Below are positions 3,415 through 60,981 of a DNA stretch of 64,000 nucleotides, piece by piece. The notes beneath the pieces were generated by a model, which had not been told where the DNA came from, ran no database searches, and worked only from the letters and a program-made list of their open reading frames with translations. Origin of the DNA: Candidatus Eiseniibacteriota bacterium (lineage in GTDB: Bacteria; Eisenbacteria; RBG-16-71-46). Numbering within the stretch: position 1 is the first letter of the stretch; every line of letters starts with the position of its first letter. A program made the position numbers and the translations under genes. Location: positions 160,001-224,000 of the forward strand of contig OY970342.1 of the NCBI GenBank assembly GCA_963717505.1. Direction: 5' to 3'.

Positions 3415-3918
3415 CTACTCGCCAGCCATCAGCGACTTGCCGACCGGCTCCCACAACGACGTGAGCGCGGCCATCTGGTCGGGCTTCAAACCCTTGCTGG
3501 TCGCCGCACCCGTCAATGCCTGCCCCACACCGGCCACCGCGTCCGCGTTGAGATTCTTGCCCGAGAGTGCGGCCAGCAGGTCGGCACCGCTGCCGGTCGT
3601 GGCCTGACCGGCGGCCTTCGCGATCGAATTGTAGAGCCCGTCTTTGGCCGTCACGATGTCTGCAGCGCTCAGGGCTTGCGCGATCATCGGGTTCGCGCTC
3701 AGGTTGGTGCCGAACTGATCGGCGAGTGACGTGACGCCGGCCGAACCACCGAGTGACTGGTACAGCGATGCGGCGCCGGTCGCGGCGGCGGTGGCGCTGG
3801 CGGCCATCGACGAAGAAGACGAACCCGCCGTGCTGGTCTTGTTCGAGCTGGAGCAGCCTGCGAGCAGTGAAACCGCCAGAACCAGAACCCCCAGCGGGCG
3901 AAGCGTGCGGGACTGCAT
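3415..3918 (-). CDS. Lipoprotein with group-I truncated-globin-like domain lacking histidine
   Basis: Lipobox LLAGC, Ser/Ala linker, then SLYQSLGGSAGVTSLADQF resembling the trHbN SLYxRLGG start; GAGG RBS upstream. Confidence 0.7.
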   Translation of the reverse strand: MQSRTLRPLGVLVLAVSLLAGCSSSNKTSTAGSSSSSMAASATAAATGAASLYQSLGGSAGVTSLADQFGTNLSANPMIAQALSAADIVTAKDGLYNSIAKAAGQATTGSGADLLAALSGKNLNADAVAGVGQALTGAATSKGLKPDQMAALTSLWEPVGKSLMAGE

Positions 3919-52070: not shown

Positions 52071-54050
52071 GTGCTCGAACGATTGCGGGCGGTCCTGATC
52101 GGCGGTCCGAAGAACTTCCTCGACCCCCGCATCCATCACGCGCTGGCCCTGGTCGCCTTCTTCGCCTGGGTCGGTCTCGGCTCCGACGGACTCTCGTCGT
52201 CGTGCTATGGACCCGAGGAGGCGTTTCGCGAGCTGGGTCGCCATCGCCACCTCGCGCTCTACCTGGTCGTTGCGATTGTCGGGACCGTCTTCCTCATTTC
52301 GGCCTCGTACAGCTACATCATCGAGTTGTTCCCGACCGGCGGCGGCGGCTACCTGGTGGCGACCAAGCTGCTGGGACCGACGCCGGGCGTGGTCTCGGGT
52401 GGTGCGCTGGTCGTGGACTACATCCTCACGATCGCGATCTCGGTTGCCTCGGGGTGCGACGCCATCTTCTCTTTCCTGCCGGAGGTCTGGCACGTTTTCA
52501 AGCTCCCGGTCGAGCTGGTGGTCGTCGCCACCCTGAGCAACATGAACGTGCGCGGGGTCAAGGAATCCATCTTCGTCCTGACCCCGATCTTCCTCGGCTT
52601 CATCCTCAGCCACATCGCGCTGATCCTGGTGGGCACCTTCGGGCACGCGACCGCGTTCCCGACGCTGATCCAGGACACCATGATCGACACCCGCGGCGCC
52701 ATCGACGAGATGGGCATGATCGGCGTCGCGCTGGTCTTCCTGCGCGCGTTCTCGCTGGGCGGCGGCACGTTCACGGGCATCGAGGCGGTCAGCAACAGCA
52801 CCGAGATCCTGCGCGAGCCGCGCGCGGTCACCGGGCGACGGACCATGCTCTACATGGCGATCTCGCTGGCGTTCACCGCCGGCGGCATTCTGCTCAGCTA
52901 CCTGATCAACGACGTTCACCACGAGACCGGCAAGACGCTGAACGCCTCGCTGTGGTCGACGTTGACTTCGGGCTGGCAGATCGGCGGCTGGAACATCGGG
53001 CCGGGGGTGGTGGTGTTCACCCTCCTCTCGGAGGGGGCGCTGCTGTTCGTCGCCGCGCAGACCGGGTTCATCGCGGGTCCGCGCACGCTGGCGGCGATGG
53101 CGGTCGACAACTGGGTGCCCAAGCGTTTCAGCCATCTCTCCGAGCGACTGGTCACCCAGAACGGGGTGCTCACCATGGGACTGGCCGCTGCGCTCACTCT
53201 GCTCTATACCGGCGGCTCGGTGCGACTGCTGGTGGTCATGTACTCGATCAACGTGTTCCTGACCTTCACGCTGACCCAGCTCGGCATGGTGCGGCACTGG
53301 ATCAACGTGCGCAGCGAGGTCGTACACTGGCGGCGCCGCCTTACCGTGGCGTTGCTCGGCACCGGCGTGACCGGTGGCATTCTGGTGGTGACCACGGTGG
53401 TCAAGTTCCAGGAAGGCGGCTGGGTGACGTTGCTGGCGACCGGAGGCTTCGTCGGCTTCTGTTTCATCGTTCGCACGCACTATCGGCGCGTGCAGAAGCT
53501 ACTGTCGTCGCTCGACGAGGTGCTGACCAACATCCCGATGCAGGACCCCAAGGAGCAGCCCGAGCTTGACCCCGAAGGCGCGACCGCGATCGTGCTGGTC
53601 GAATCGTATCGTGGGCTCGGGATTCACACGCTGCTCTCGATCCATCGCATGCTGCCGCGGCACTTCAAGAACTTCGTGTTCTGCTCGGTCGGCCTGGTCG
53701 ACTCCGGTCAGTTCAAAGGGGTTCGCGAGCTGGAAGCACTCGAGCAGAAAGTGCGGAAGGATCTCGAGAAATACGTCGCGCTCGCGAATCGAATGGGGTT
53801 CTACGCCGAGTATCGCTTTACCATGGGCACCGACCTGATCCAGGAACTCGAGGGTCTCTGCCTCGATCTGGTCAAGGAATTCCGGAAGCCCGTGGTGTTC
53901 GCCGGCCAGCTCGTGTTCCAGCGTGAGAACCTATTCACGCGTACGCTGCACCACGAGACTGCGTTCTCGATCCAACGCCGGCTGCAGTTCGCCGGCATTC
54001 AGGTCATCATCCTGCCGATCCGCGTCTGGGAAAAGAAGCGGTCGGCGTAA
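52071..54050 (+). CDS. APC-family permease (KimA/YdaO-like)
   Basis: GSDGLSSSCYGPEE, FPTGGGGY, VVDYILT, FTGIEAVSN; about 12 TM helices plus soluble C-domain. Confidence 0.85.
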   Translation: MLERLRAVLIGGPKNFLDPRIHHALALVAFFAWVGLGSDGLSSSCYGPEEAFRELGRHRHLALYLVVAIVGTVFLISASYSYIIELFPTGGGGYLVATKLLGPTPGVVSGGALVVDYILTIAISVASGCDAIFSFLPEVWHVFKLPVELVVVATLSNMNVRGVKESIFVLTPIFLGFILSHIALILVGTFGHATAFPTLIQDTMIDTRGAIDEMGMIGVALVFLRAFSLGGGTFTGIEAVSNSTEILREPRAVTGRRTMLYMAISLAFTAGGILLSYLINDVHHETGKTLNASLWSTLTSGWQIGGWNIGPGVVVFTLLSEGALLFVAAQTGFIAGPRTLAAMAVDNWVPKRFSHLSERLVTQNGVLTMGLAAALTLLYTGGSVRLLVVMYSINVFLTFTLTQLGMVRHWINVRSEVVHWRRRLTVALLGTGVTGGILVVTTVVKFQEGGWVTLLATGGFVGFCFIVRTHYRRVQKLLSSLDEVLTNIPMQDPKEQPELDPEGATAIVLVESYRGLGIHTLLSIHRMLPRHFKNFVFCSVGLVDSGQFKGVRELEALEQKVRKDLEKYVALANRMGFYAEYRFTMGTDLIQELEGLCLDLVKEFRKPVVFAGQLVFQRENLFTRTLHHETAFSIQRRLQFAGIQVIILPIRVWEKKRSA

Positions 54051-54061
54051 CGGAGACACTC

Positions 54062-54840
54062 ATGTACACGATCGATCTCTCCGGCCAACACGCGTTGATC
54101 ATGGGCGTGGCCAACCACCGCAGCCTGTCGTGGGCGATCGCCCAGTATCTGCACCAGGCTGGCGCCAAACTCGCGCTGACCTATCAGGGCGACCGGCTCA
54201 AGTCCATGGTCGAGGAGCTGGCCAAGCCGCTGGTCGACGTCCAGCTCATCGAATGCGACGTCACGCGCGACGACCAGATCGACGCGGTCGCCAAGCGCCT
54301 GGGCGAGACCTGGGGCTCGATCGAAATGCTGGTCCACGGCATCGCGTTCGCGCGCAAGGAGGATCTCGAAGGCGACTTTGCCGCGACGTCGCGCGAGGGC
54401 TTTCAGTTGGCACTCGAGATCAGCGCGTATCTCTCTGTCTGAACGTCACGAACCGATTGCTGCCGTTGCTCGAGAAGAACGGCGCGAGCATCGCGACCCT
54501 GTCCTACCTGGCCGCCGAGCGCGCGGTGCCGAGCTACAACGTGATGGGCAGCGCCAAGGCGGTGCTCGAGCAGATCGTGCGCCAGCTCGCGTTCGAATTC
54601 GGTCCCAAGAACATCCGGGTCAACGCGCTGTCGGCCGGGCCGGTGAGCACGCTGGCCTCGCGCGGCATCCAGGGTTTCGTCGGCATGCTCAAAGGCCACG
54701 CAGAGAAGGCGCCGCTCAAGCGCAACATCACCAAGGAAGAGGTCGGCAAGGCCGGACTGTTCCTGCTCACGGACTTGTCGAGCGGCATCACCGGCGAGAC
54801 GCTGTACGTCGACGCCGGGTATCACATCATGGGCTGGTAG
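54062..54840 (+). CDS. fabI: Enoyl-ACP reductase (frameshift at about 54431-54438)
   Basis: MGVANHRSLSWAIA, ECDV, LVHGIAFA, EISAY; then TLSY..YNVMGSAKA, RVNALSAGPV.TLA, GITGE.LYVDAG. Confidence 0.92.
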
Positions 54841-55056
54841 CCGCCCCAAAGCTCCGTTTTCCGCGCGGCCGCGCCCCCGGTGGGTCGCTCCAGCATCTGG
54901 CCATCTCCTGGCCACCGACGCCCCGCGAATCGAGTCCTCCCTCCACGAAAGCCCGTTCGCCCTCCACCCCCCGAACGTAGGAAGGGTCAGGCACCGTGGG
55001 TGCGGCTTCGGCCGAAGCCGGCCGCCGGTGTTTGGACCGAAAAGGAGGAGAAGGTC

Positions 55057-55260
55057 ATGAGGAAGCTCGTCGTCAAAGCCGTCGCCATCGCTCTGGCCCT
55101 GGCAGCGATTCTGCCGGGGATCAGCGCGGCCAAACTGGCGTCGAATCACAACCGCACCCTGCTCAGGGTGGTCGCCATCGCTCTGGCGCTGGCAGCCATT
55201 CTGCCGGGGATCAGTGCGGCCAAACTGGCGTCGAATCACAACCGGACGCTGCTCGGCTAG
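55057..55260 (+). CDS. 67-aa secreted peptide precursor with two tandem signal-peptide + KLASNHNRTLL cassettes
   Basis: AAGGAGG RBS; MRKLVVKA-VAIALALAAILPGISAAKLASNHNRTLL-RV-VAIALALAAILPGISAAKLASNHNRTLL-G*; copies differ only at synonymous sites. Confidence 0.85.
   Translation: MRKLVVKAVAIALALAAILPGISAAKLASNHNRTLLRVVAIALALAAILPGISAAKLASNHNRTLLG
55081..55260 (+). repeat. 90-bp direct tandem repeat (2 copies)
   Basis: 55081-55170 vs 55171-55260; 5 mismatches in the first 84 nt, all third-codon positions. Confidence 0.95.
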
Positions 55261-55336
55261 TCGCGGGCAGGCCGGCCCGGCGCGGAGTCTTCTGCTCCGC
55301 GCTCGGGCCAGCGATTCCGTCGCGAGAGGCGCATCC

Positions 55337-57649
55337 GTGCGACGCCCGCTGCTCGACCTTCGCGCCCGATGGCTCGGCGCTACAGGGCCCGACCGCGCGC
55401 GGATGGTGTCCCTACCCGCAGCCCTGAACGTAATCATTTGCCTCGTGTCGGCGGCGGTCGCCAGCGCCGACGACCCGGTCTCGCTCCCCCCACTGACCAT
55501 CGCTCGCGCCTCGGGGCCGATCGCCCTGGACGGAGCCCTCGACGATGCCGGCTGGCAGGGCGCAACCCCCATCACCACTTGGTTCGAGACCAACGTCGGC
55601 GACAATGTCGAGCCCCAGGTGCGCAACGTCGCGTTCTTGGCGTACGACTCCCGTTACCTCTATGCGGCGTTCCGGTTCGAGGACCCACGACCCGACGCGA
55701 TTCGCGCACCACTCGGCGATCACGACGCCATGCCGCCCTCGACCGACTACGCCGGCGTGATCGTCAACAGCCTGAACGACGGCAAGACCGCGCAGATGTT
55801 CATGGCCAATCCGCGCGGCGCCCAATACGACGCGCTGAACAGCGATGCCTCGGGCGAGGACAGCGCTCCCGACTTTCTGTGGGACGCGGCGGGCCGCATC
55901 ACCTCGACCGGCTGGTCGTTGGAGATGAGGATCCCGTACGCGTCGTTGCGCTACGCGAACCAGGCGGAACCGACGTGGCAGATCATGCTCCACCGCAACT
56001 ATCCGCGGGATCGGCGCTATCAGTTCTTCACCGCGCGAATCCCACGCGACGCCAACTGCTTCGTGTGCAGCTCGACCCCGTTGGTCGGCCTCGCCGACTT
56101 GCCTCGCGGATCGCACCTGGTGGTGGCACCGTACGTGACCGCGCAAGGAGCCCAAGTTCCCCAGGGCGACCCAGGCAGTCCACTCGAGACCCGGGCCACC
56201 GAGACCGACGGTGGTCTGGACCTCAAGTGGAGCCCGTCGACCAGCGGTGCCATTGATCTCACGATCAACCCCGACTTCTCCCAGGTCGAGTCCGATGCCG
56301 CACAGATCACGGCCAACGAGCGCTCGGCGCTGTTCTTCCCCGAGAAGCGTCCGTTCTTCCTCGAAGGCGTCGACCTGCTGTCCACGCCACTGCCGGTGGT
56401 CTACACGCGCTCGATCACGTCACCGCGCGCCGGCCTTCGCGCCACCGGGAAACGCGGCGGCACGGCGTTCACCGCGCTGGTCACCCACGATCGCGGCGGT
56501 GGGCTCGTGATCCTGCCCGGGCCGCAGGGCTCGGGGTTCGCACTTCAAGACTTCCCCTCCGACGTCGGCATCCTGCGGGTTCGTCACGACCTCGGGAGCT
56601 CGTTCGTGAGCCTGCTCGCCACCGGGCGCATGCTCGACCAGGGCGGCAGTAATCTGGTGGTCGGCCCGGACGCCCAGTGGCGACCGAGTGATTCCGACGC
56701 GCTCACAGCCCAGGCGTTGTGGAGCCAGAGCCAGACGCCGAACCTGCCCGAGCTGGCCGCCGAATGGGACGGCCGCGTCTTGAACGACCATGCGCTCTTT
56801 CTCGATTGGTCGCATACCACCGAACGGGTCGACTGGGTACTCGAGACCCTCGACATTGGCTCCGATTTTCGCGCCGACAACGGCTTCATGCCGCAGGTCG
56901 GATATCGCGAGGCGTATCTCGACGCCGGCTACACGCTGCGCCCCGATCAGGCGTTCGCCTCGCGGATTCGCTTCTTCACCGAGGACTACTACGACGTCGA
57001 GCCCGACGGGCGCCCGCTCAACCAGCATCTGTCTCTGGGGTCCGAGATGGACGGTCTGTGGAACAGCCTCACGCGCTTCGAGGTCAATCTCGAGAACGTC
57101 CGCGTCGGCGAGGCCTGGCTCCAGCGCTTCCGCCCGCGCGTGTTATTCCAGGCCAGCCCGGGTCGGATCCTGAACCAGTTCACGCTCGATACACGCTTCG
57201 GCCAGGAGATCGACTTCGACAACGCACGCGAAGGCGACGGAATCAACGTCGTGGCCAGCGTAACCGTGCGTCCGAACGCGCACCTCGAGGTCCAGGGCAA
57301 CAGCGATCTCAGGACCTTGAACGCCGCGTTGCCGGGCGGCCCCCGCATGCGGGTGTTCACGGCGGGGGTCGGACGCGTTCGTGCAACCTGGTCGTTCACC
57401 GCGCGTGCGTTCGTGCGAGTGGTCGGCCAGTACGTCGAGACCCGCCGCGACCCGACGATGTACACCTTCGAGGTCCCGTCTCGCGAGGCGGAACTCACCG
57501 GCTCGGCACTCGCCGCCTACAAGGTCAACTGGCAGACTGTGTTCTACCTCGGCTACGGGGACGCGACGACCTGGGCCGTGTCGCGGGCCGATTGGGCGCC
57601 CGGAGCCCGGGAAGTGTTCGCCAAGGTGTCGTACGCGTGGCAGGAGTAG
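55337..57649 (+). CDS. CBM9-like / DUF5916 outer-membrane protein
   Basis: IALDGALDDAGW..AYDSRYLYAAF N-domain; GLDLKW..DLTINPDFSQVESD..FFPEKRPFFLEG..YTRSI; beta-strand C-terminus FAKVSYAW. Start may be ATG 55403. Confidence 0.87.
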   Translation: MRRPLLDLRARWLGATGPDRARMVSLPAALNVIICLVSAAVASADDPVSLPPLTIARASGPIALDGALDDAGWQGATPITTWFETNVGDNVEPQVRNVAFLAYDSRYLYAAFRFEDPRPDAIRAPLGDHDAMPPSTDYAGVIVNSLNDGKTAQMFMANPRGAQYDALNSDASGEDSAPDFLWDAAGRITSTGWSLEMRIPYASLRYANQAEPTWQIMLHRNYPRDRRYQFFTARIPRDANCFVCSSTPLVGLADLPRGSHLVVAPYVTAQGAQVPQGDPGSPLETRATETDGGLDLKWSPSTSGAIDLTINPDFSQVESDAAQITANERSALFFPEKRPFFLEGVDLLSTPLPVVYTRSITSPRAGLRATGKRGGTAFTALVTHDRGGGLVILPGPQGSGFALQDFPSDVGILRVRHDLGSSFVSLLATGRMLDQGGSNLVVGPDAQWRPSDSDALTAQALWSQSQTPNLPELAAEWDGRVLNDHALFLDWSHTTERVDWVLETLDIGSDFRADNGFMPQVGYREAYLDAGYTLRPDQAFASRIRFFTEDYYDVEPDGRPLNQHLSLGSEMDGLWNSLTRFEVNLENVRVGEAWLQRFRPRVLFQASPGRILNQFTLDTRFGQEIDFDNAREGDGINVVASVTVRPNAHLEVQGNSDLRTLNAALPGGPRMRVFTAGVGRVRATWSFTARAFVRVVGQYVETRRDPTMYTFEVPSREAELTGSALAAYKVNWQTVFYLGYGDATTWAVSRADWAPGAREVFAKVSYAWQE

Positions 57650-57744
57650 TATTGATCCCGAAGCGCTGATAGACCAAGGCGTTGGGGGTGAAGTCTCGTG
57701 TTCGCCGCGTCACGTGCCCGACCCGCCCGCCGCCGAGGCTCCCC

Positions 57745-60700
57745 ATGAGCCTCGGCGCTCGTGCTTGCCTGATTGGGCTGATCGTTCAGGCATTCGCCAT
57801 CTCGTCCACTCCCCGGGCGCAGACTCCGCCACCGGTCACCCCGCGATTCTCCCCGGTTCTTCTGGTGCCTCGGCCGGCGCGCAGCACCGGAGCGGAATGG
57901 GATTCGCTCGAGCGCTTCGAGCGCACCGGACGTTGGGCCGCCTCGGAGAGTTTGGCCACCACATTGATCCACGCGTCGGAGGCTGCCGGAGCACGAAAGG
58001 ATTCCCTCGACTACTCGCGCGCGCTCTTCTACTTCGGCAACTCAAGGCTCATGCGCCGGCTTTACGCCGACGGCCGCGGATTCGAGTCCCTCGAGCGGGG
58101 CATCGGCATTCGCGAGCGCCGGGCCGGAGCCAACGACACGCTGTGCACCTGGGCTCACGTGAAGGCGGCGACGCTCTATCCGGAGGCAGGAGACCCTGAT
58201 CTCGGTCTCGCGCACGGAGAAGTCGGCTTGCGAAGGCTGCTGGCTCGAACCCCAACCGACACCTCCATGCTGGCGCAGGCGCACCTCGCGGTGGCGGCTG
58301 CCCTGATCGCACTCGGTCGCGACGCCGAAGCCGGCCCGCATTTCGAAGATGCCCTCCACTTTCGCGAGCGTGCCGATGCGGGCGAGGGGCGGCTCATGGT
58401 GCCGATGCTCGCCGAGTACGGAGGCTACTTGTCGCGAGCCGGAGAGCTCGATCGTGCGCGAGCCATGCTGCAGCGCGCCGTGCGCATCGCCGAGCACGAT
58501 CCCAACCCCGGATCCGATTTCTACGCCCAGTCCTTGGGCCGGCTGTCCTCGTTCGAAAATCGGGTCGGCAACGTCGCCGAGTCGATCGAGCTCGCGTGGC
58601 GTGCCTACGACGCCTCGCGTCGCCTGGGGGAAATCACGGTGCCCGCGCTGCGGGCGCGCACGGTGCTCGCCTATCGATTGCAGGATTTCGGCGACCCGCA
58701 AGGCTCGGTTGCACTGCTGCGCGAGATTATTCCGGGCCTCGAGACTACGGTCGGGGCGAACAACGCCCAGACGCTCAATGCCCGACTTGCGCTGGTCTGG
58801 GCCCTCATCGAGATCGGCGACACGGCGACGGCCGAGCGTGAGCTCGCGGCGGCGCGGCCGGCGTTGGCCACTCAGAATCCCAGGACCAGCAACAATCCGG
58901 TGTATGCGATGCAGCTCTCGGGCGACCTCGCGGGCCTGCGCGGCTTCCACATTGCCGCCCGCGAGACGCTGGCAGGCGCGGTGGCTCTCGAGCGAGTCCG
59001 GCACGACCCCTTCGGAGCCCGCGAGGCCGTCCTGCTGGCCCACCTGATGGACAACCTGCTCGAGCCCGCGGATCGCGACCGCGTCCTCGAGGTCGGGCGG
59101 CAGATCGACCGCCTACGCGACAGCACGCACGTTCGCGCCACCCCCGAGTGGCACACGCTACTCCTGGCTCGCGGGTCGGCGGAAGGGCGAGTGGGCCTGC
59201 AAACGGCGGCATGGGAACACGCGCTCGAGGCGGAGCGACTGTCCCGGGAACTCCTCACCTATCAGTTGGAGGCGTTGCCGGACGTGCGCGGGCTCCAGCT
59301 GGCGCGCGCGCTCGGCGGGCCGTGCGAGCTGCTGGCCGCGCTCGTCAATCCTGACTCGGCGGGCCGCGTGGCGACCGCCTGGGACCGCATCGTGCGCTGG
59401 CGCGGCGTCGTCGGCCACGAGATCGCCCGTCGCCGGGCTCCGGTCGCCGCCGCGAGCGACAGTGCCCTGGCTGCCGCCCATGCGCGATGGGTGTCCGCGC
59501 AGCGCCAGCTCGCCCAGCTCGTGGTCAGCGGGGCCGCGCACCCGGACGACCCGGAGAGCGCCGAACGCTTCTCTGCGGCGTTCCAGCGCGCCGAAGATGC
59601 CGAGCGTGCGTTCCTTCGCTCGGCGCGTGGCTCGGTCCCGGCGGATTCGGTGGCGGGGCTCGATCTTGTCCTCGACCAGCTCGATCCGCACCAGGCTCTG
59701 ATCGCGTTCACGGTGGCCGACCGCGGGGCGGGTCCCCCCAACCTCGGGGCGTTCATCGCCGACGGTGGCGAGCGACAGCCGCGCTGGATCACGCTCGGTC
59801 CGCTCCCGGAGATCGAGCACGACATTCGATCGTGGGTTCGGCTGCTGGCAGCGCCCCCCACGGCCGACCGCGATGGCGAACGCGCGTGTCGAGAGCTGGG
59901 ACAGAAGGTGCGCTCGCGGGTGTGGGATCCCGTCCGGCGCGCGGCGGGGAACGCCCGCGAGCTGATCCTGGTGGCGGAAGGCGTGGTGACCGAGCTTCCG
60001 TGGCTCGCACTCCCTGAGCCCCATGGGAAGTACCTTGCCGACACACCGCTGATCGTGCGTCTCGTGGATGCAGAACGCGACCTGCTGCCGGATCGATCGT
60101 CGACCGCCGAGGGTCGTGGTCTGCTCGCGGTCGGTGGCCCGAATTTCGGAACGCCGGAAGCCGCGGGCTCGGTGGCGCTGGCATCCGCAGGATCTGAACA
60201 CCGGATTCCGCCACGTTCACCGTGCGTGCCCCGGGCCTTGTCCCTGTCCGAGCTGCCGTCGGCACGGCGCGAGGCTGAGGGCATCGCTCGCTCGTGGCCG
60301 ACTCCCGATGGACCGTCGGATCTGCTGGTGGGCGCCGAGGCCAGCGAGTTCGCACTCAAGACCCACTCTCCGGGCAAGGCCGTGATCCACGTGGCGACGC
60401 ACGGCGTCATGCTCGACGATACCTGCCGCGCCGCCGGGCTTCCGGGCACGCGGGGACTGGGTGGCGTCGAGCCGCTCGACTCTCCCACCGCGAAGCCCGC
60501 ATCCCCCAAGCTCAAGAACGTGGCGCCGCCGACACGACCCGCGCTCCCCGACCCTTGGCTGGCCCGACGCGTCTGGCTCGCGCTCGCCGGCGCCAATCGC
60601 CCCGTACCCGACAGAGCCGACGAGAACGAGGGCCTGTTGACCGCCGAAGAAGTGGTCACGCTCGATCTGCGGGGCACGCAATGGGTCGTGCTCTCCGCCT

Positions 60701-60981
60701 GCTACTCGGGCGCCGCGCAGAGCTGGGCGCGCGAAGGGGTCCTGGGCATGAACCGGGCGTTTCATCTCGCAGGCGCCCGCGCGGTCATCGCCAGCCGATG
60801 GGCGGTCGGCGACGAGTCGGCAACCGAGTGGATGACCGCGCTCTATGAATCCCGCGCGCGGCACACGAGCGCCGGTGCGGCAGTGGGCGAAGCCTGCCGC
60901 ACTGTGCTCGCCAGGCGCCGCGCGCAGGGCCGCACCACGCATCCCTTCTATTGGGCGGCGTTCAGCGCCACCGGCGACTAG
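57745..60981 (+). CDS. Exported TPR-CHAT (caspase-like clan CD) protease
   Basis: Signal-like N-terminus; helical TPR-like region; IHVATHG and VVLSACYS dyad, GLLTAEEV, AGARAVIAS.W.VGD, HPFYWAAF. Confidence 0.9.
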   Translation: MSLGARACLIGLIVQAFAISSTPRAQTPPPVTPRFSPVLLVPRPARSTGAEWDSLERFERTGRWAASESLATTLIHASEAAGARKDSLDYSRALFYFGNSRLMRRLYADGRGFESLERGIGIRERRAGANDTLCTWAHVKAATLYPEAGDPDLGLAHGEVGLRRLLARTPTDTSMLAQAHLAVAAALIALGRDAEAGPHFEDALHFRERADAGEGRLMVPMLAEYGGYLSRAGELDRARAMLQRAVRIAEHDPNPGSDFYAQSLGRLSSFENRVGNVAESIELAWRAYDASRRLGEITVPALRARTVLAYRLQDFGDPQGSVALLREIIPGLETTVGANNAQTLNARLALVWALIEIGDTATAERELAAARPALATQNPRTSNNPVYAMQLSGDLAGLRGFHIAARETLAGAVALERVRHDPFGAREAVLLAHLMDNLLEPADRDRVLEVGRQIDRLRDSTHVRATPEWHTLLLARGSAEGRVGLQTAAWEHALEAERLSRELLTYQLEALPDVRGLQLARALGGPCELLAALVNPDSAGRVATAWDRIVRWRGVVGHEIARRRAPVAAASDSALAAAHARWVSAQRQLAQLVVSGAAHPDDPESAERFSAAFQRAEDAERAFLRSARGSVPADSVAGLDLVLDQLDPHQALIAFTVADRGAGPPNLGAFIADGGERQPRWITLGPLPEIEHDIRSWVRLLAAPPTADRDGERACRELGQKVRSRVWDPVRRAAGNARELILVAEGVVTELPWLALPEPHGKYLADTPLIVRLVDAERDLLPDRSSTAEGRGLLAVGGPNFGTPEAAGSVALASAGSEHRIPPRSPCVPRALSLSELPSARREAEGIARSWPTPDGPSDLLVGAEASEFALKTHSPGKAVIHVATHGVMLDDTCRAAGLPGTRGLGGVEPLDSPTAKPASPKLKNVAPPTRPALPDPWLARRVWLALAGANRPVPDRADENEGLLTAEEVVTLDLRGTQWVVLSACYSGAAQSWAREGVLGMNRAFHLAGARAVIASRWAVGDESATEWMTALYESRARHTSAGAAVGEACRTVLARRRAQGRTTHPFYWAAFSATGD

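Follow-up and report, generated by a model that had tools for sequence, protein, structure and literature searches.

A two-cassette NHNxT peptide gene in Candidatus Eiseniibacteriota and its putative partner, a TPR protein of the kinesin light chain type

Here, we describe a small open reading frame (ORF) of 67 codons in the genome of a member of Candidatus Eiseniibacteriota. It is located in a stretch of 64,000 nt that was analysed as a whole and is called the window throughout (contig OY970342.1, positions 160,001-224,000 of the forward strand, assembly GCA_963717505.1). Judged by its sequence, the ORF is the Sec-type two-cassette member of a widespread, unannotated peptide family with the core motif NHNxT, whose members are each paired with a tetratricopeptide repeat (TPR) protein of the kinesin light chain (KLC) type. 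Two points are firm at the computational level: the ORF appears as a real, translated and constrained gene, and its conserved tail is obligately paired with the TPR protein. From a predicted complex, it is plausible that the tail fits a conserved groove of the TPR protein. We assign a probability of roughly 0.5 to the reading that the ORF encodes an exported NHNxT ligand, which is sensed by the TPR protein with output to an extracytoplasmic function (ECF) sigma factor. Within this reading, the link to the sigma factor is inferred, as are export and re-uptake of the peptide, its site of cleavage and what becomes of the second cassette.

The peptide gene and its family

The gene consists of the following parts, given with their positions in the window and the evidence used.

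55057..55260, + strand: ORF of 67 codons plus TAG stop, two tandem cassettes of a signal-like segment and an NHNxT core (sequence, family membership); the translated product is MRKLVVKAVAIALALAAILPGISAAKLASNHNRTLLRVVAIALALAAILPGISAAKLASNHNRTLLG, 67 aa
55043..55048, + strand: Shine-Dalgarno sequence AGGAGG, 8 nt 5' of the ATG (sequence)
55081..55254, no strand: tandem repeat, period 90 nt, 1.9 copies, 94% matches, no indels (Tandem Repeats Finder)
55057..55131, + strand: cassette 1, M1-A25, with n-region MRK, hydrophobic h-region, LPG and ISAA; putative cleavage by signal peptidase I behind A25 (residue counts per position in 54 homologous units)
55132..55167, + strand: core 1, K26-R37, KLASNHNRTLLR (conserved motif; outside the complex prediction)
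55168..55221, + strand: hydrophobic and c-region of cassette 2, V38-A55, VVAIALALAAILPGISAA; without MKK, preceded by R33 and R37 of core 1 (sequence; same layout in ten other two-cassette homologues and in metagenome locus L181)
55222..55257, + strand: core 2, K56-G67, KLASNHNRTLLG; as the C-terminal tail, it occupies the TPR groove in the predicted complex

A preliminary description of the window, made from its letters alone, had reported a strong ribosome binding site (RBS) and a duplicated 30-codon unit with five synonymous differences, and had concluded that the ORF is translated, constrained and not an assembly duplication. Both observations were recovered. In a codon-by-codon alignment, the two cassettes encode the same residues over 28 aligned codons, and the five differences (GCC/GCG, GCG/GCC, AGC/AGT, CGC/CGG and ACC/ACG) are all synonymous third-position exchanges; the 29th aligned codon reads AGG/GGC (R/G). 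Under random placement over ~26 synonymous and ~61 non-synonymous sites (~30% synonymous), five out of five synonymous exchanges are expected with P ~0.0025. Since all five are synonymous, the copies have most likely diverged under constraint at the protein level, and since they differ at five sites, an assembly duplication is argued against. One might regard the ORF as no gene at all, but as a reading frame that arose in GC-rich DNA by chance or through duplication in the assembly: it is small, the surrounding DNA has 67% GC, and the fabI gene just 5' appears frameshifted and thus points to indel problems in the assembly. We consider this extremely improbable. The strong RBS and the purely synonymous divergence of the units speak against it, and together with dozens of homologues conserved at the protein level and the co-occurring TPR gene described below, they effectively refute it.

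A six-frame scan of the whole genome yielded seven NHNxT strings. The full motif context occurs in the window ORF only; the five other strings lack it and look like chance matches. In short reads from a relative that is ~95% identical, one contig of 207 nt (run X4, depth 2.5) lacks exactly one 90-nt unit and joins 55164 straight to the sequence 3' of cassette 2, which represents either a single-cassette allele or a repeat collapsed in that assembly. None of the relatives' contigs spans the cassette junction with 31 nt on both sides, and the contig of run X2 stops 11 nt into cassette 2.

For the family as a whole, a hidden Markov model (HMM) built from a four-sequence alignment was searched against 1.84 billion representative proteins. 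At E<=1e-3 it matched 45 proteins, and 13 of these also pass E<=1e-10. The long repetitive proteins P0012 and P0034 were regarded as false positives, which leaves 43 representatives. A typical member has ~38 aa and is composed of MKK, a variable hydrophobic stretch, LLPG, a small-x-small motif (AxA) and (K/R)LxxNHNxTxLRG before the stop codon. Among curated families (Pfam, NCBIfam, PADLOC), neither the window peptide nor 12-14 relatives from other phyla have a match above cut-off, and the PADLOC defence-system scan returned generic kinase matches and one weak TPR match only, so that a role in defence was rejected. A word-indexed protein search with the window peptide finds the query itself and one 38-aa relative; with the variant of genome G164, which is described below, it finds three proteins, none of them named. 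The ESM Atlas gave no usable match.

Conservation was counted over 54 units, leaving out P0012, P0034, the duplicate P0010 and three proteins of the G164 type. Positions are relative to the first N of the core.

first N: N in 54/54 units
+1: H in 51/54 units
+2: N in 47/54 units, S in the other 7
+4: T in 50/54 units
+6: L in 48/54 units
-5 (-1 of the putative cleavage site): A in 45/54 units
-7 (-3 of the putative site): A, S or G in 47/54 units
-10 (-6 of the putative site): P in 45/54 units
first residue after the putative site: K or R in 48/54 units

The preliminary description had seen in each unit a signal peptidase-like site followed by a polar peptide of 12-13 residues. The polar peptide is conserved across the homologues, and in addition to the Pro at -6, 49 of the 54 units combine A/G/S/C at -1 with A/G/S/C/T/V/I/L at -3, as is expected for a Sec substrate of signal peptidase I by sequence. 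The homologues keep NHNxT far more strictly than the h-region, which varies freely. With a near-invariant core and a variable h-region, the proposed NHNxT core stands. When 21 sequences are aligned, no column is invariant except M1, N and H. The distance to the end of the protein is often fixed as well: in 30 of the 43 terminal units, the C-terminus lies exactly nine residues past the first N.

Two full cassettes are present in 11 of the 43 representatives, including the window ORF. The two units of one protein are more similar to one another than to those of other proteins, which suggests repeated duplication or concerted evolution. Three of the ten other two-cassette homologues retain only a decayed first core, NRNQT or NRSQT.

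One Eisenbacteria family has minimal variants that do not conform to the Sec signal pattern. Variants of this kind have 25-31 aa, e.g., MLNIILALISAVVDRLATNHNRTVLRG, carry neither a K/R n-region nor AxA and are located directly 5' of the TPR gene; they were seen at loci L053, L054, L065 and L066 and at the metagenome loci L183, L189, L234 and L254.

The TPR partner and the predicted complex

The partner is a TPR_10/TPR_12 protein of ~240 aa without a signal peptide, with 45-58% identity between Eisenbacteria genomes. Among 206 genomes of the phylum, the peptide HMM matches 11 at E<=1e-3. An HMM of the TPR protein reaches 226-387 bits in the same 11 genomes and at most 141 bits in every other. 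The TPR model was built from eight of the 11 genomes, and the three left out still score 304 (G000), 258 (G052) and 226 bits (G164). In eight of the 11 genomes, the TPR gene shares its strand with one or more peptide genes and starts ~10-80 nt 3' of them (G016, G045, G172, G050 on contig 42, G189, G166, G051 on contig 38, and G199). An apparent TPR-sigma fusion in G051 was rejected; the TPR match splits into two frames there, which represents a frameshift in that assembly.

As far as its sequence tells, the source genome holds one peptide gene and one TPR gene. The single TPR orthologue (58% identity, E 7e-75) is found at 225076-225849 of the genome, 1.1 kb beyond the end of the window; the next best TPR protein matches at 7e-24 and over partial length. 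The encoded protein of 257 aa has TPR_10/TPR_12 matches only (Pfam TPR_12 1.6e-33).

Beyond the Eisenbacteria, one genome per species was scanned for the conserved TPR stretch. 279 stretches matched, 238 of them encoded relatives, and the best 80 were kept. An NHNxT ORF was counted if its last NH[NS]x[TS] lies <=14 residues from the stop and its end <=800 nt 5' of the TPR match on the same strand. Such an ORF is located upstream of the TPR relative in 47 of the 80 genome loci, compared with 3/80 in an equal window downstream (all three being real extra peptide genes) and 0/80 in antisense. For metagenome loci, the count is 37/80, with at least 200 nt of upstream sequence present in 69/80. The genome loci were assigned to Acidobacteriota (Blastocatellia, Thermoanaerobaculia and others), Planctomycetota (Gemmataceae, Pirellulaceae, Phycisphaeraceae), Verrucomicrobiota, Rokubacteria, Gemmatimonadota and a metagenome-assembled genome (MAG) labelled 'Deltaproteobacteria'. 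The metagenome locus L181 carries a two-cassette precursor of the Sec type, which ends 86 nt 5' of a TPR gene 55% identical to that of the source genome.

The leaders in front of the core are of four types: Sec-like signals in Eisenbacteria, Rokubacteria and Verrucomicrobia; double-glycine (GG) type leaders, LTDEELDGIKGG, with a weak sub-threshold match to a pneumococcal pheromone model; Lys-rich segments such as LKVKTNVKAGG; and acidic segments such as EEIEEIIAPG or IVKLEERIAPKL. The preliminary description had called the repetition of the signal sequence unusual. Within the superfamily it is not, since 21 of the 47 loci have one ORF with 2-10 leader-plus-core repeats. Ten repeats were observed at L123 1665-2336 (Planctomycetota) and eight at L143 1191-2405 (Blastocatellia), with GG-type leaders in both precursors; an ORF with eleven repeats lies 1.4 kb 5' of the TPR gene in L177 615-1097 (Solirubrobacteraceae).

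For the neighbouring genes in other phyla, 91 of 147 called flanking ORFs from 35 loci were scanned; the scan excluded every ORF that overlaps, on either strand, a TPR or peptide gene, as well as several short ORFs at the ends. An HlyD gene follows the TPR gene directly in 6/35 loci, and an ECF sigma factor is encoded within 2.5 kb in 10/35. A distinct arrangement was found in the Eisenbacteria genome G164 (L052, G164:C110 8750-9205, - strand). Three tandem genes encode 43-aa proteins (MKTQTHLKAGRLASNHNETLVREGRR...KKAK) with the motif and without a hydrophobic segment. The genes around them code for HlyD, an ABC exporter with a C39 peptidase, a sigma-54 activator and a TPR domain fused to a SET domain; this fusion scores 226 bits with the TPR model.

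By sequence and by fold, the TPR protein is of the KLC type. Its AlphaFold2 (AF2) model has eleven helices and a mean pLDDT of 89.4. In a profile search of the PDB sequences, the best 14 of 23 matches are kinesin light chains (KLC2 E 4e-42), and Foldseek with the AF2 model places KLC first, followed by LGN and by APPBP2, a receptor for C-degrons. Among the chains that these comparisons list, there is no RRNPP receptor.

The TPR protein (alignment of nine sequences) and peptide residues 38-67 (alignment of ten) were submitted to complex prediction in one job. The ipSAE values are 0.77, 0.75 and 0.77, while the best of three controls reaches 0.02; the partner pLDDT is ~60, and 70% or more of the contacts recur between runs. 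When the tool was calibrated, the mark was reached by 58 of 80 solved complexes and by 2 of 110 mismatched pairs. The confident interface of the predicted complex comprises only peptide residues 56-67 (KLASNHNRTLLG), with the hydrophobic segment outside, and the contacts of lowest error involve N60, N62, T64 and L66. Of the 35 invariant TPR residues, 13 fall within the 39-residue interface, where 5.3 are expected (P 4e-4), namely N55, G58, K62, H97, N98, G101, L102, H104, A140, D146, G147, N182 and H188. Among them, N55, N98, H104, D146 and N182 are predicted to make contacts in the groove.

The closest solved relatives of the partner are TPR-cargo structures of KLC (PDB 6FUZ, 6FV0, 6SWU, 3ZFW). 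They hold a short linear peptide in the concave groove, a C-terminal one in 6FUZ and 6FV0, and the predicted complex adopts the same geometry. Thus, its score may in part reflect a memory of these solved complexes, which weakens it as support for a ligand role. The KLC structures are eukaryotic motor adaptors which recognise tryptophan- or tyrosine-acidic motifs, whereas an NHNxT ligand and a bacterial two-gene module have no counterpart among them.

The motif itself would also allow a quite different role. N-x-T or N-x-S occurs in 52/54 units and could represent an N-glycosylation sequon on a periplasmic peptide. We regard this as very unlikely. The source genome (87% complete) has no match to the oligosaccharyltransferase STT3/PglB (PF02516), while positive controls in four archaea were matched; the residue at -2 is N and not D/E; and conservation covers the whole NHNxTxL block, whose predicted binder is the TPR groove.

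Export, sensing and output

In the reading we favour, the precursor would be exported via Sec and cut by signal peptidase I, which would free the NHNxT peptide or peptides. The core (K/R)LxxNHNxTxL(R)(G) would be the specific ligand of the dedicated KLC-type TPR protein. The latter would sense the peptide after re-uptake or as the unexported precursor, in the second case as an escort or as a sensor of the cell's own production, and would relay to the adjacent ECF sigma factor in an RRNPP-like logic within a diderm phylum.

Several observations bear on the compartments. The core is constant while the export or processing signals before it are interchangeable, and exporter genes are found nearby; this argues that the core leaves the cell. 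Among the partner TPR proteins, 43/47, including all from Eisenbacteria, lack an N-terminal hydrophobic segment. In the four loci with a hydrophobic TPR N-terminus, three partners are secreted proteins of ~180-200 aa ending in NHNETLVRD, so ligand and TPR protein seem to be kept in one compartment. A cytoplasmic TPR protein and an exported-looking peptide could thus meet on a re-imported peptide, on an unexported precursor or on a tail that stays inside.

As to the putative output, the TPR gene of the source genome is followed after a gap of 88 nt by an ECF sigma factor gene, and the next gene encodes a Ser/Thr kinase that carries DUF4384. The sigma gene lies directly 3' of the TPR gene in G051 and G052 as well, and orthologues with 42-69% identity are found near the module in six of the 11 Eisenbacteria genomes. 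The sigma factor retains an acidic stretch of the DxxDxxQE type, DTSDLVQE. No classical anti-sigma gene is present, which makes the TPR protein a candidate sigma regulator.

A number of points weigh against exported signalling. The compartments do not match, as the TPR protein is signal-less and the peptide looks exported, and no importer is conserved among the neighbours at the loci examined. In the source genome, the pair is split by 9.8 kb instead of being adjacent. Short hydrophobic N-termini with neither a K/R n-region nor AxA are found in variants of one Eisenbacteria family and in many from metagenomes, and these minimal forms look more like N-out/C-in membrane peptides than like Sec substrates. 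After a first cleavage, a second internal signal would enter the translocon wrongly oriented for signal peptidase I. The preliminary description had noted that the Arg residues of core 1 could serve as n-region of the second signal; by the topology rules for Sec, a hairpin or a stop-transfer is at least as likely for a two-cassette product. The decay of the first core in three homologues suggests that only the C-terminal copy matters. Finally, the core is almost invariant across phyla, unlike the strain-specific pheromones.

Part of these points would be explained if the hydrophobic segments were uncleaved anchors, and the cytoplasmic NHNxT tail drew the TPR protein to the membrane or sequestered it there, and with it the sigma factor. 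Single-cassette members would then be N-out/C-in, and two-cassette members would form a hairpin with N inside, the loop outside and C inside. This is in agreement with the signal-less TPR protein, with the fixed length of the tail up to the C-terminus, with a predicted complex that uses the tail only, and with the retention of the C-terminal core where the first one decays in 3/10 two-cassette homologues. The minimal variants, which lack n-region charges and have a tail with two to three positive charges, also point this way; for such tails, the positive-inside rule favours C-in. On the other hand, the conserved Pro-Gly at -6/-5 and the small residues at -3 and -1 are typical of a cleaved signal and needless for an anchor, and the MKK n-region favours N-in. 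In other phyla, the core occurs behind GG-type or soluble leaders without any hydrophobic segment and beside HlyD/ABC exporters, so that a membrane anchor is no general feature of the family. On balance, we think such a tether improbable, though worth keeping in mind.

A natural product of the RiPP type (ribosomally synthesised and post-translationally modified peptide), or one resembling bacteriocins, would account for other observations. The ORF would be a multi-core precursor, and the TPR protein would serve for recognition, escort or immunity in the producer. Multi-core RiPP precursors, e.g., of cyanobactins and microviridins, carry a repeated leader or recognition element and core in one precursor, and here 2-10 leader-plus-core repeats are found in 21/47 loci. 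Like those systems, some NHNxT loci have C39-ABC/HlyD export genes, and the order of precursor or precursors, small binding protein and HlyD resembles bacteriocin loci; G164 combines three tandem precursor genes, the TPR-SET fusion and a C39-ABC exporter with HlyD. Furthermore, one of the Eisenbacteria copies (G050:C1) has a radical SAM/SPASM gene next to it, and the TPR protein is weakly similar to the TPR protein of FxSxx-COOH systems at a sub-threshold score (73 bits, cut-off 300). Against this stands the lack of a modifying enzyme near the window ORF and of a conserved one over the 35 loci of other phyla. The only universal neighbour is the TPR gene; in contrast to multi-core RiPPs, the repeated conserved element is predicted to bind this stand-alone TPR protein. 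The polar element of eight residues is invariant across phyla, unlike bacteriocin cores, and the genes for ECF sigma factors and kinases that recur nearby speak for a regulatory role. A natural product is thus an unlikely reading, about on a level with the membrane tether.

Coming back to exported signalling, the preliminary description had compared the ORF with signalling peptides of the Phr/PapR/AimP type. The comparison holds in part. A dedicated signal-less TPR partner and the predicted binding of the tail are in agreement with it; the receptor is of the KLC type, with no RRNPP homologue. In the parts of PMC10075063 and PMC9765709 available to us, RRNPP(A) systems (Rap-Phr, NprR-NprX, PlcR-PapR, PrgX, AimR-AimP) are described from Bacillota and their phages. 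As described there, they share with the NHNxT module a small ORF and a gene for a cytoplasmic TPR-type protein, which adjoin in eight of the 11 Eisenbacteria genomes but not in the source genome. Further common traits are a propeptide of ~40 aa, whose secretion signal is N-terminal and whose active part is C-terminal, as predicted for the NHNxT peptide, and the patchy distribution of the two-gene module. The differences are found in the TPR protein, which has the sequence (E 4e-42) and fold of KLC and neither a helix-turn-helix (HTH) nor a phosphatase effector domain, in the recurrent neighbours (ECF sigma factor, Ser/Thr kinase, HlyD exporters), in the diderm hosts and in a core that is near-invariant and not strain-specific. 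The module is RRNPP-like in its proposed logic; judged by receptor homology and effector domain, it is not a member of the RRNPP family. In tandemly duplicated propeptides of phage Rap-Phr systems (Felipe-Ruiz et al. 2024), a single signal peptide precedes the pheromone part, which alone is duplicated, and the copies are freed by extracellular proteases, according to the part of PMC11343458 at hand. More than one copy of the mature peptide per propeptide is common to both; in the window ORF, the signal-like segment is duplicated along with the core.

A related gene order is known for ECF43 and related groups, where an ECF sigma gene is followed by a Hanks-type kinase gene (PMC13147305, PMC7826278, as far as these sources are available). 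The module agrees with ECF43 in this order and in the lack of a classical anti-sigma gene. It differs in that its sigma factor keeps DTSDLVQE, unlike the ECF43 consensus given in the available part of PMC13147305, and in that genes for the TPR protein and the NHNxT peptide precede. The available ECF/kinase descriptions of both sources contain no peptide-TPR partner. We found no description of the NHNxT motif or of a peptide-TPR-sigma module in the literature searched; supplementary gene-neighbourhood tables, e.g., those of PMC7826278, might mention TPR neighbours.

According to the available part of PMC10075063, the sensing of genetically encoded peptide signals by cytoplasmic TPR receptors is considered peculiar to Bacillota and their phages. 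The pair described here is non-homologous, is defined by strict co-occurrence, adjacency and a predicted complex, spans many poorly studied Gram-negative phyla, and is often linked to ECF sigma factors, kinases or peptide exporters. If the signalling role is true, it would mean peptide communication in diderm soil and sediment bacteria and a new mode of ECF sigma control. As a more far-reaching and clearly tentative proposal, the NHNxT/KLC-type TPR pair might be a widespread, unrecognised system of cell-cell or self-sensing signalling in diderms, i.e., an analogue of RRNPP of independent origin. The TPR protein could then act, e.g., as anti-sigma factor of the adjacent ECF sigma factor, multiple cassettes could set dose or valency, and the window ORF would be the Sec-exported two-cassette form. 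Even in the most cautious reading, thousands of unannotated tiny ORFs would gain a function as carriers of an NHNxT ligand, and a large class of bacterial KLC-like TPR proteins would gain a defined ligand.

Neighbouring genes and further observations

Downstream of the peptide gene, the following features were found.

55270..55309, + strand: GC-rich hairpin just 3' of the stop, without a U-tract (fold of 55255-55345: -52.7 kcal/mol, z -2.34, 3 of 200 shuffles as good)
55337..55387, + strand: probable vestige of the 5' end of a TPR gene, VRRPLLDLRARWLGATG, 76 nt past the peptide stop, which is the canonical distance, and in frame with the DUF5916 ORF
55403..57649, + strand: next gene, DUF5916 protein with its own signal peptide (Pfam PF19313 E 6e-11)
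57682..60981, + strand: TPR-CHAT protease-like protein with an N-terminal hydrophobic anchor (Pfam CHAT E 2e-47)

A scan of 54700-55500 for promoters and terminators found none of either. In an HMM search with TPR N-termini over 80 kb in six frames, VRRPLLDLRARWLGATG is the best non-self match with 14.5 bits, followed by the next best at 11.7. It resembles the N-termini of partner TPR proteins, i.e., MMRRWLRIVRARWLGG in G016 and MGRILLELRARWSAHF in the source genome. From the sequence, it looks as if a TPR gene once followed the peptide gene and its body was replaced by, or separated from it by, the intervening genes. Today, four genes lie between the peptide gene and the TPR gene, encoding the DUF5916 protein (+), the TPR-CHAT protein (+), a beta-propeller protein with a sorting tail of the type IX secretion system (T9SS) (-) and a MATE efflux protein (-).

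Among these neighbours, the DUF5916 protein was rejected as a partner; no relative adjoins the peptide in the other contexts fetched. An orthologue of the TPR-CHAT protein lies beside the pair of G016 (L048 9389-12667, + strand; 36% identity over 1057 aa). Such orthologues occur near the module in only two of the 11 Eisenbacteria genomes, which are both genomes of this bacterial family that have the module. It is thus possible that TPR-CHAT is an accessory component within this family, and such proteins might process or sense the exported peptide. A CRISPR-associated TPR-CHAT protease controls an ECF sigma inhibitor, which gives a lead for the CHAT neighbour.

Upstream of the peptide gene, the 17-mer CCCCG(A/G)ACGTAGGAAGG is located at 54969-54985 (+ strand), 72 nt 5' of the ATG. 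The same 17-mer occurs at the 3' end of the TPR gene of G016 (L048 8247-8263, - strand) and nowhere else among 177 loci; it may represent a shared regulatory site. Further upstream, fabI (enoyl-ACP reductase, 54062-54840) is split over two frames, with 54062-54442 followed by the frame of 53923-54840. At ~54420-54445, contigs of relatives are one base short at 54429 and 54437, or at 54431 and 54439, which suggests indel errors in the assembly or a real frameshift.

Three further loci deserve mention. In a Rokuibacteriota MAG (L115 2519-3613, + strand), the TPR ORF continues into a C-terminal tail ...RLSSNHNETLVLD... and a second NHNET ORF follows (3570-3890, + strand); either TPR protein and peptide are fused here, or an error in the assembly has led to a read-through. 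In Blastocatellia, genes for an HTTM-domain protein and a di-haem oxidoreductase (DHOR) flank the NHNET precursors with GG leaders in L133 and L143. In L050 (G050:C1, 9042-10728), a copy of the peptide gene is directly followed by an ECF sigma factor gene, with a radical SAM/SPASM gene and an ABC ATPase gene as divergent flanks.

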